A stretch of 62,243 nucleotides of DNA, filler included, from Basidiobolus ranarum (Eukaryota): NCBI GenBank assembly GCA_040143965.1. It is 28 parts of 28 records of this genome, joined end to end, with 100 filler letters (N's around TTAATTAATTAA, not from the genome) between each part and the next. Parts side by side here need not be neighbours in the genome. Positions count along the whole stretch, not along the records: positions 11,176 to 13,308 come from JASJQH010003734.1; 27 more parts are not named here. One strand, 5' to 3'. The position numbers and the translations under genes were made by a program. Positions 11,176 to 13,308 of the stretch are shown here, piece by piece (position 1 is the stretch's first letter; every line of letters starts with the position of its first letter). The notes under the pieces are model-generated. The model saw only the letters and a list, made by a program, of their open reading frames with translations. It searched no databases and was not told the DNA's origin.

Positions 11176-11556
11176 GACAGGTTCAACTTGATAAGGAATG
11201 ACTGTCAACTCATAGGCACCCTTGGGCTTGTTCAGCTTATCAACCAACTTGACATCAACGCCGTATTGGAAATCAGCACCAATGACTTGAAACTTGGAGA
11301 CACCATTCAAATAGTCCAAGTTATCGTAAGTTCCTGAGGCTAATTCATCATATTTGCCTGGGACAGGAGTGTCAATCTCATTGTGCTCCCAGATATTCAA
11401 TCTAACTGAAGCACCAACAATCACTGAGCGAAATTTGTCATTATAGGCATCTCCGTAGTTGAAGCGGACGGTTTGGCCTTTCTCGTAGGTTTCAGTCTTG
11501 CTGCCTTGCATATTTAGCTCATAAGCGAACTTGACTTTATTTGATTCTACGGACAT
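11176..11556 (-). CDS. DdCAD-1-like calcium-dependent cell adhesion protein (beta/gamma-crystallin N-domain plus start of Ig-like C-domain), 3'-truncated by contig end
   Basis: [10 protein letters not shown]...[19 protein letters not shown]...[15 protein letters not shown]...NGVSKFQV...VDVK...PYQV follows the Dictyostelium CadA sequence as I recall it, almost colinearly. No signal peptide. Confidence 0.88.
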
Positions 11557-11571
11557 GGTGCGGTAAATGAG

Positions 11572-11632
11572 CTAGATGGGAAGAGTAATTAGTACTAAAT
11601 GCAAACTTCAGCATATAAAAGAGTACTCTTAC
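11572..11632 (-). other. Predicted 5'-UTR spliceosomal intron of CAD-like copy 1
   Basis: GTAAGA...TACTAAT...CTAG, 61 nt, ending 15 nt before the ATG. Conserved in copy 2. Confidence 0.7.
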
Positions 11633-13017
11633 CTAACTGTGATTCTTGTCTTTTCAAATTGTTGTTGAATCCTCTTATATTTATACTTTCGTCGTAGAGT
11701 TTGAAAGCCGATATTTACTTAGTGCTTCAATATAGTTCTGACGATCTTACCATATATGCTACTGCATATACCGGATTTGTATCATGCTTCATGATACGAG
11801 AAATCACTACTAACTTGATTCAAGCCTTCTTTGCAACTAGTACGCCAACATACAACACGACAATGTTGTACCATTACATATATTTGCAACAGTGAATCTC
11901 GCGGTGGCTTAGAATACAACTGCTCAGCACTAATCAAGGTTCTATGTATAACATGAGTTACTACTAACCAGTCAACCATAGACAACGCAAATTTTGTAAT
12001 TTCAAGAGCATTAGTACTACCACTAGTATCGGTATGCCTATAAATTTGGAACTTATAGTAAACGTGTTTTATTAAATACTAGAGCTTATTGTGTTCTTTT
12101 TAATTGGTGGCTTAGTAGTCAAGAGCCGCATTCCCATCCCGATTTTGGAACATAGTTTCCGATCAACGTACTGTAGTACGTAAGTGGTTTGTCAGGATTT
12201 ATTTAAAATAACACGTTATTGGCGAATCAATGATTATATAGTGAATTTCATCAAAAGTCTGAAAATTTAGTATACTTTTGTGGTTTAATTGATCAGAAAT
12301 GCTACTAAATGCGATAAATCTGCGAAAGTGAATAGGAACTCCTTGCTTCCAGTTGATATACCAGTATCAATAATAAGAGTACGAATTGATTCCTTACCAT
12401 CATTCCTTTTTAGCAACCTCTTGCTTTCAGCTGCTTCACCAGTGTCATTTAATGTAATGCGAAACGGATTTATCCTTCTCAGTAGCACTGACTCTGGCGA
12501 TAGCTGAAGTAGATGAAAGAACGATAAGTGATTTGATTGAAGAGAGGCTTATTTGCCACTTCGATTTCAATAGATTAAGAGGTCTATGCCGGTTAATATA
12601 AGAAATCTTTTACCTGTAAACTAGGTCTTCTGTATCAAAAACCAACTACAAATATCATATTGGTAGGTAAACCAATTTTAAATAGTAGTACCAAGGTTCT
12701 TTGCATTACATAGTACTCATTACACATCATTAACTGGTTAGTTACAGCTTTTGTTACACACCAGATCATGATTTGTGCTAACTAGTTGTATTCTAAGCCA
12801 CCACTAAATAAACCGCTGTAATATACCTAGTAGATAACGATATAGTACTCCATTACGCCAACATTGGCGTACTATCTACAAAGAACACTTGAGCTAACTT
12901 AGGAGTGGTTTCTTGTATCATGAACCACAGCACAAATTCGATATATGTGGTAGTATATATGGTAAGATCGTCAGAACTATATTGAATCATTAAGCAAATA
13001 TCGACTTCCAACGAAAG

Positions 13018-13131
13018 TATAAATCTAAGAGGATTCAGCTACAATTTGAAAGAACAAGAATCACTGTTAGGTAAGAGTACTCCTTTATGTACTGAAGTTT
13101 GTATTTAGTACTAATTACTCTTCCCATCTAG
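13018..13131 (+). promoter_or_regulatory. TATA box (13018-13024) and 5'-UTR intron (13071-13131) of CAD-like copy 2
   Basis: TATAAAT is followed by a 61-nt GTAAGA...TACTAAT...CTAG intron. The arrangement is mirrored upstream of copy 1. Confidence 0.7.
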
Positions 13132-13146
13132 CTCATTTACCGCACC

Positions 13147-13308
13147 ATGTCCGTAGAATCAAATAAAGTCAAGTTCGCTTATGAGTTGAATATGCAAGGC
13201 AGCAAGACTGAGACCTACGAGAAAGGTCAAACAGTCCGCTTCAACTACGGAGATGCTTATAATGACAAGTTCCGCTCAGTGATTGTTGGTGCTTCAGTTA
13301 GATTGAAT
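13147..13308 (+). CDS. DdCAD-1-like protein copy 2, 3'-truncated by contig end
   Basis: The 54 visible codons encode the same amino acids as copy 1, with 8 nucleotide differences, all synonymous. Confidence 0.88.

Follow-up and report, generated by a model that had tools for sequence, protein, structure and literature searches.

The DNA examined here (the window) is a stretch of 62,243 nucleotides (nt) from Basidiobolus ranarum, of the phylum Basidiobolomycota, and one complete contig within it (11176-13308, 2133 nt) bears two copies of a gene that is a true homologue of DdCAD-1 (cadA), the calcium-dependent cell adhesion molecule (CAD) of Dictyostelium. The likeness is already present in the automatic GenBank annotation, where the product is named after the amoebal protein Cad3. 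What appears to be new is the occurrence in a fungus of a CadA-type member of the family, as opposed to one resembling the Abundant Perithecial Protein (APP) of Neurospora crassa, together with the expansion of the family and its probable origin by transfer. No paper linking the family with Basidiobolus was found in the literature; the supplementary tables of surveys of horizontal gene transfer might list the gene. The transfers reported so far for Basidiobolus are of bacterial genes, and the available portions of the 2020 survey (PMC7466969) and of the 44-genome survey (PMC11291939) make no mention of Dictyostelium, amoebae, adhesion or crystallin.

The homology covers a beta/gamma-crystallin domain and the start of an Ig-like domain, and is borne out by direct comparison, by Pfam and by Foldseek. 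In the longer of the two genes, copy A (11176-11556, minus strand; codons 1-127, open to the contig end), residues 2-126 match the DdCAD-1 chain 1YHP with an E-value of 1.1e-43. The sequence-only reading that preceded this work had pointed to blocks shared with DdCAD-1; all seven of the blocks that it quoted occur in 1YHP in the same order, a match far beyond chance. Its statement that the crystallin Ca2+ motif is kept proved equally sound, NDKFRS aligning with NDKFMS of DdCAD-1, and residues N39, D40 and S44 of this N-D-K-F-x-S motif are invariant in all eight close sequences. The Pfam and sequence search of the 127 residues (aa) that it had proposed returned significant matches to both DdCAD-1 and PF08964. 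The latter profile, Crystall_3, occupies aa 5-92 of copy A (E 3.7e-23, 81.9 bits against a cut-off of 27.3), and is joined by the first 28 profile positions of the Ig-like domain, Membrane_bind (PF14564; E 0.0011), whose 19.8 bits fall under the cut-off of 25 because the copy A protein is cut. An AlphaFold model of the 127 residues, built from 23 sequences, reached a predicted local distance difference test (pLDDT) value of 84.5, and its top Foldseek match in the PDB was again DdCAD-1 (1yhp; E 1.7e-09, query-normalised template-modelling score 0.80, 57% identity). The next matches were to the crystallin domain of Neurospora APP (33% identity) and to its whole chain (31%). The ESM Atlas yielded generic bacterial crystallin clusters only, at 0.85-0.90 and under the recognition mark, and was not used. 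Fused forms, sought among longer proteins of 224-2000 aa, were not found, which is weak evidence.

Copy B (13147-13308, plus strand) provides codons 1-54, is likewise open to the contig end, and encodes a protein identical to copy A. Both coding regions, of 127 and 54 aa, lie where the sequence-only reading had placed them, and its claim that they lack a signal peptide agrees with a polar N-terminus in which no leader is seen, by inspection alone. Its description of the genes as intronless stands for the parts that are present and not beyond them, as the contig ends truncate both genes. The two copies are arranged head-to-head and divergently transcribed. They differ at 8 nt in the 162 shared coding bases, affecting 7 codons, all synonymously, and the DNA upstream shows substitutions and a 9-nt gap between the two arms. 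With about a quarter of random changes being synonymous, the chance of seven out of seven would be about 6e-5, which is our own estimate rather than the output of a tool. Because all the coding differences are synonymous, we conclude that selection maintains both copies.

Self-alignment and BLAST delimit the duplication that contains these genes. Its left arm (11395-12059) comprises the coding start, the 5' untranslated region (UTR) and the promoter, its inverted right arm lies at 12645-13308, and the arms are 94% identical over 298 nt, then 82% over 148 nt (BLAST, 79.7% over 674 aligned columns). Between them lies a unique spacer of about 585 nt (12060-12644) in which no open reading frame of at least 50 aa, no Rfam family and no match in the other 27 contigs of the window was found; the Rfam search of the contig as a whole also returned no family. 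A fold-back assembly artefact was considered and rejected, since the arms of such an artefact would be identical and these differ (94% and 82%). Pseudogenes were likewise rejected, given that neither frame is interrupted before the contig end and that the changes are all synonymous. The best explanation of the sequence is that the contig carries two recently duplicated copies of what would be a functional gene.

Upstream of each copy, a predicted 5'UTR intron of 61 nt with the pattern GTAAGA...TACTAAT...CTAG was read from the sequence, at 11572-11632 on the minus strand for copy A and, as the same element, at 13071-13131 on the plus strand for copy B; both stop 15 nt short of the ATG. On a sister contig, the equivalent junction is read through in the public gene model P0048. 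With 6 occurrences in the window versus 5.4 +/- 2.3 in shuffled sequence, the intron-like pattern GTAAG...CTAAY...YAG is not enriched, so the predicted intron is not shown to be of host type. Farther upstream are putative TATAAAT boxes at 11679-11685 (minus strand, copy A) and 13018-13024 (plus strand, copy B). Composition, TATAAAT boxes and predicted intron would all fit a native gene, and are no proof of one.

The fungal identity of the host, which the sequence-only reading had taken as apparent, was established through the public model P0047, a protein of 93 aa entitled 'putative calcium-dependent cell adhesion molecule 3 [Basidiobolus ranarum]'. If translation is begun at Met16 and 47 nt are cut out as an artificial intron, copy A yields P0047 exactly, and the contig recorded for P0047 is likewise 2133 nt long. 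The window contig is therefore the contig of P0047, its host is B. ranarum, and the public model is wrong at both ends: over 11176-11511 (minus strand), true coding sequence was removed as the 47-nt intron, which results in an early stop and six wrong end residues. The model of P0048 carries a false N-terminal extension of 61 residues that consists of translated promoter and 5'UTR.

The family in B. ranarum comprises window copies A and B, P0003, P0048, P0001, P0046 and P0045, distributed over six contigs. Copies of the window type are found twice on the present contig and once each on contigs of 1586 nt (P0003) and 2847 nt (P0048). A second type, 88-89% identical to the first, is represented by P0001 and P0045, on contigs of 3420 and 1084 nt, and by P0046, on a contig of 21,830 nt that bears the locus tag K7432_005161. 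As P0047 derives from the window contig itself, the 89% identical B. ranarum protein is a paralogue or allele of the same species and lends no second-species support. The N-termini of P0046 and P0001 differ (MSVEST... vs MTVASN...), and the upstream translation of P0048 differs from those of both window copies; together, these N-termini and upstream translations point to at least five distinct copies or alleles in B. ranarum.

The missing C-terminal half of the protein is supplied by P0046, which is full length (213 aa), 88% identical to copy A and equipped with both domains (PF08964, E 2.7e-23; PF14564, E 2.7e-40). Its model has a pLDDT of 93.0 and superimposes on 1YHP with a Z score of 25.9 and a root-mean-square deviation (rmsd) of 1.9 A over 210 of 212 residues. 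The second-best match, APP (5z6d_A), reaches Z 16.9 over 193 residues with an rmsd of 9.4, so that the orientation of the domains differs; the crystallin domain of P0046 by itself matches 5z6e with Z 16.6 and an rmsd of 1.4 over 88 residues. A prediction of P0046 as a two-copy dimer scored 0.08 against a mark of 0.32 and provides no evidence either way.

Comparison with known systems places these proteins closest to DdCAD-1/CadA (gp24), Cad2 and Cad3 (1YHP, 2B1O), with which they share the same two domains, the same length (P0046, 213 aa) and 57-62% identity. As in DdCAD-1, no leader is seen, and the N-D-K-F-x-S motif and an 11-residue block are kept. Unlike DdCAD-1, the Basidiobolus proteins belong to a walled fungal host, carry an additional residue ahead of Tyr24 and are one residue shorter in the second motif loop, and form a family grown to at least five near-identical copies. 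They also contain no cysteine, compared with five in DdCAD-1; cysteines are absent from all three Basidiobolus rows of the alignment, whereas each of the 16 other eukaryotic rows has 3-10. The claim of the sequence-only reading that there is no characterised fungal member has to be withdrawn, as N. crassa APP has known structures (5Z6D, 5Z6E). This fungal protein, assigned to Crystall_3 (formerly DUF1881), has the same beta/gamma-crystallin plus Ig-like build and no leader. The Basidiobolus protein is only 28-36% identical to it, however, and scores 52.6 bits against it versus 269 bits against DdCAD-1. Bacterial homologues from Halomonas stenophila, Photobacterium galatheae, P. arenosum and a Haliangium metagenome-assembled genome (MAG) have both Pfam domains, about 200-235 aa and no evident leader, and are 30-40% identical, in a separate clade supported at 100/98. 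Finally, Protein S, spherulin 3a, nitrollin and clostrillin share the fold of the N-terminal domain (Z 9.7-12.1), but are single-domain proteins without the Ig-like domain and are 12-25% identical.

Could the CAD contigs stem from an unsampled, dictyostelid-like amoeba co-sequenced with the fungus? The family is otherwise known from Dictyostelia, most of the CAD contigs are short (1.1-3.4 kb), no second fungal species appears among the matches, and no sequence is common to the CAD contig and the rest of the window. Yet contigs of 2.1 kb, with the genes and transposons usual in eukaryotes, make up the whole window, and shortness is thus normal for contigs of this assembly; moreover, one CAD copy lies on a contig of 21.8 kb. 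The guanine-plus-cytosine (GC) content of the contig, 36.8%, falls within the 32-43% of the other 27, and by 3-mer distance to the others it is 22nd of 28 and no outlier. Group-4 Dictyostelium has about 22% GC overall, unlike the 35% of the intergenic DNA of this contig; at third codon positions, the CAD-type gene has 47% GC vs 53% and 40% for two host genes. The mean gene GC of B. meristosporus is 0.49 in the available text of PMC7466969. Moreover, the proteins are just 44-62% identical to the named dictyostelid CADs compared, and sit on a stem of their own of length 0.26. Their lack of cysteines, a trait of their own not seen in any of the 16 other eukaryotic rows, speaks against simple contamination by an amoeba already sequenced. 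With at least five copies that are 88-100% identical, the family also differs from the paralogues of D. discoideum and D. purpureum that were compared, which share just 54-73% within a species. Contamination is thus, in our judgement, quite improbable.

The relatives of the gene were sought exhaustively by HMMER among 1.84 billion representatives, which gave only 21 matches at E <= 0.001. Eighteen of the 20 matches other than the window's own are named, and none of them is fungal; the named matches comprise D. discoideum, D. purpureum, D. firmibasis, Heterostelium, Cavenderia, Synstelium and Halomonas stenophila. Maximum likelihood applied to 25 rows groups the three Basidiobolus rows with a support of 100/100 and places them within the eukaryotic (dictyostelid) CADs, a clade split from the bacterial one at 100/98; the latter is confirmed as bacterial for Halomonas, both Photobacterium and Haliangium. 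When the tree is rooted on bacteria, Basidiobolus falls between the CadA/Cad2 and the Cad3 groups, with supports of 82/88 and 82/93. The phylogeny that the sequence-only reading had called for answers one part of its question, with Basidiobolus inside the eukaryotic CAD clade at 100/98, and not the other, since its place among dictyostelid paralogues has 82/88 and the approximately unbiased (AU) tests do not reject a sister position. One further AU comparison (p 0.001), which set 12 named dictyostelid rows against the rest, including four eukaryotic rows nested among them, is uninformative on Basidiobolus; one of those four rows is D. purpureum.

Identity values add to this picture. P0046 is 56-62% identical to CadA/Cad2-type proteins and 53-58% to Cad3-type proteins, and these two groups are 50-54% identical to each other. 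Proteins of group 1-3 dictyostelids compared with those of group 4 are 35-47% identical, and those of Cavenderia or Synstelium 38-47%. In a crude score test against APP (5z6d), Basidiobolus reached 52.6 bits and three dictyostelid CADs 47.4, 50.8 and 55.8 bits, so that Basidiobolus is no closer to APP than CADs that are not fungal. Closeness to both dictyostelid groups and the absence of a special affinity for APP favour transfer over vertical descent. The origin that we favour, at about even odds, is a transfer from a dictyostelid-like amoeba into the lineage of Basidiobolus, where the family would then have multiplied; a transfer between the two lineages could also have run in the other direction.

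The same data bear on ancient vertical inheritance, by which a two-domain protein of the ancestor of Amoebozoa and Fungi would have been lost in a patchy manner, leaving Basidiobolus with a slowly evolving copy of which ascomycete APP is the fast orthologue. Fungi do hold the family, given APP (5Z6D) with the same two domains, a sister relationship between Basidiobolus and the amoebal CADs as a whole is compatible with the AU tests, and a few residues are common to Basidiobolus and APP and not to DdCAD-1, such as GS...TY and a cysteine-less S-V-x-V-G-A-S stretch. Nevertheless, Basidiobolus is nearer to each dictyostelid paralogue group (53-62%) than these are to each other, its identity to dictyostelids is well above that between groups 1-3 and group 4, and no other opisthokont occurs among the 21 matches. 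Its score against APP is no better than those of amoebal CADs, while P0013, a member of the bacterial clade, reaches 104 bits. Vertical descent is on these grounds unlikely.

Several results also weigh against transfer from an amoeba into Basidiobolus. No homologue from a second Basidiobolus species or from another fungus was found among the search matches, and a single species, with apparently a single assembly, is the source of all the Basidiobolus CADs, most of them on contigs of 1-3.4 kb; BLAST found no repeat common to the CAD contig and the other 27 contigs. APP-type fungal sequences are not among the rows of the tree, and nesting among dictyostelid paralogues has a support of just 82/88. 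An amoebal clade without Basidiobolus was not rejected by AU tests with the 127-aa fragment only (p 0.464), with P0046 included (p 0.113), or after six long or partial rows had been dropped (p 0.27), so that the trees fix neither the nesting nor, as a result, the direction and timing of transfer. In addition, the hosts of the P0004/P0040 clade, whose proteins are 47-53% identical, could be fungi. The members of this clade are Cad3-like, of 214-228 aa, and turn up on numerous contigs, as long as 116 kb, from Logan, ENA and JGI, with 15 members in one 90% cluster; metagenome scans with alignment A4 and with P0004 gave no match.

Other relatives were noted in passing. P0013, cysteine-free and borne on a 30.5-kb contig, scores about as well against APP (104 bits) as against DdCAD-1 (110.9 bits), and its closeness to APP is double that of any CAD; the fungal APPs may stem from the branch that it represents. 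P0011, a protein of 1169 aa from Cavenderia fasciculata, has an N-terminal CAD module and a membrane span at its end, and represents a fused, membrane-anchored form. A scan of bacterial genomes found two-domain CAD-like proteins at four loci (L001, L002, L003 and L004, each with the match at about 3001-3640), whose hosts are Halomonas stenophila, two Photobacterium species and a Haliangium (myxobacterial) MAG; a single pattern found these four loci in 185,579 species, which suggests a very patchy distribution among bacteria. PF14564 scored above the cut-off in all three bacterial genomes searched, and in none of 14 control genomes.

Basidiobolus is a fungus of amphibian and reptile guts, and the role that we consider most likely for its CAD proteins would be that of a Ca2+-dependent lectin or adhesin of a fungus living among dense gut bacteria. 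The proposal draws on the amoebal protein as described in the available portions of the literature. DdCAD-1 is a leaderless protein of 24 kDa; contractile vacuoles carry it to the surface, and it makes cells cohere in a Ca2+-dependent manner (PMC2138044). Ca2+ is bound both by its N-terminal domain and at the interface between the domains; dimerisation and adhesion to cell surfaces are promoted by the C-terminal domain (PMC7325957). CadA is also a secreted lectin, which agglutinates Klebsiella, separates bacteria and amoebae at the plaque edge, and protects amoebae feeding on dense Gram-negative lawns (PMC6656538). By analogy, the Basidiobolus protein would bind Ca2+ via the conserved N-D-x-x-x-S crystallin motif and exit the cell by a non-classical route; its Ig-like domain could then hold it to the cell surface, and its crystallin domain could bind either like molecules or bacterial surface sugars. 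The outcome would be that fungal cells or spores are stuck together, or that gut bacteria are clumped. In its most complete form, the proposal is that Basidiobolus gained a CadA-type lectin/adhesin from a social amoeba of a shared soil and dung habitat, that the protein lost its cysteines and was amplified to at least five copies, and that it is now exported non-classically to clump Gram-negative gut bacteria or to glue spores or cells; this chain of events, taken in its entirety, is doubtful.

Two points tell against such a function. First, Basidiobolus has a cell wall and is not known to have a contractile vacuole, so that the amoebal export route is inapplicable as such and another route is needed. 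Second, full-length APP, in which the Ca2+ site is blocked by the domain interface, is not known to bind Ca2+. The main functional rival is an APP-like intracellular role, in which the same gene would encode an abundant structural protein of a developmental stage, intracellular or associated with the wall, as with perithecial APP, rather than an adhesin or lectin. The lack of a leader peptide by inspection would suit this role, as would the want of a contractile vacuole for export and a copy number compatible with high expression, and the closest characterised fungal relative is, according to the titles of its entries, a stage-specific abundant protein. In sequence and fold, however, CadA (269 bits, Z 25.9) stands far nearer to the Basidiobolus protein than APP does (52.6 bits, Z 16.9), and a domain that bears the Pfam name Membrane_bind is fully kept (E 2.7e-40). 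We regard an APP-like role as possible, though on the unlikely side, and the lectin or adhesin role remains the one that we prefer.

The make-up of the window sets the bounds within which the CAD contig can be read. Its 28 contigs are sorted by size, from 2136 down to 2117 nt, and joined by linkers of the form N44-TTAATTAATTAA-N44, which account for 54 paired runs of 44 N; those at 11076-11175 and 13309-13408 flank the CAD contig on each side. As 11176-13308 is a whole contig between linkers, it has no physical link to the adjoining stretches, and a reading of its neighbourhood across a linker is meaningless. The C-terminal half of the CAD gene is absent from the other 27 contigs, according to BLAST searches with the contig itself and with three full-length CADs as queries. 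These other contigs carry ordinary eukaryotic genes and transposons (GH20, M16, gypsy and copia reverse transcriptases, tnp2 transposase). Fragments of one repeated element with a tnp2-type Transposase_21 domain lie at 1459-2136 (minus strand; E 7.5e-13), 9937-10661 (minus) and 33598-34260 (plus), and the open reading frames of these three contigs are visibly alike. The contig at 31250-33373 (minus) consists entirely of a gypsy-type pol frame, open over 708 aa, in which RVT_1, Asp_protease and DUF4100 were recognised, and a copia-type RVT_2 fragment is found at 8208-8726 (minus). A GH20 beta-hexosaminidase with a hydrophobic N-terminus (48037-48936, plus) and an M16 (insulinase-type) peptidase (51256-51822, plus), both cut by contig ends, served as references for composition.

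Should the CAD contigs prove to be contamination, they would provide a useful flag for the public assembly and its annotation. Should the preferred reading hold, they would record a transfer of a cell-surface function from one eukaryote to another. In the most complete form of the proposal, this would be a rare transfer from an amoebozoan to a fungus, and a tool of amoebal 'barrier immunity' would have been reused by the latter. The gene family would also offer a testable handle on how a gut fungus copes with dense bacterial communities. Ultimately, a single family could be compared across the aggregation of amoebae, the fruiting bodies of ascomycetes and Basidiobolus.

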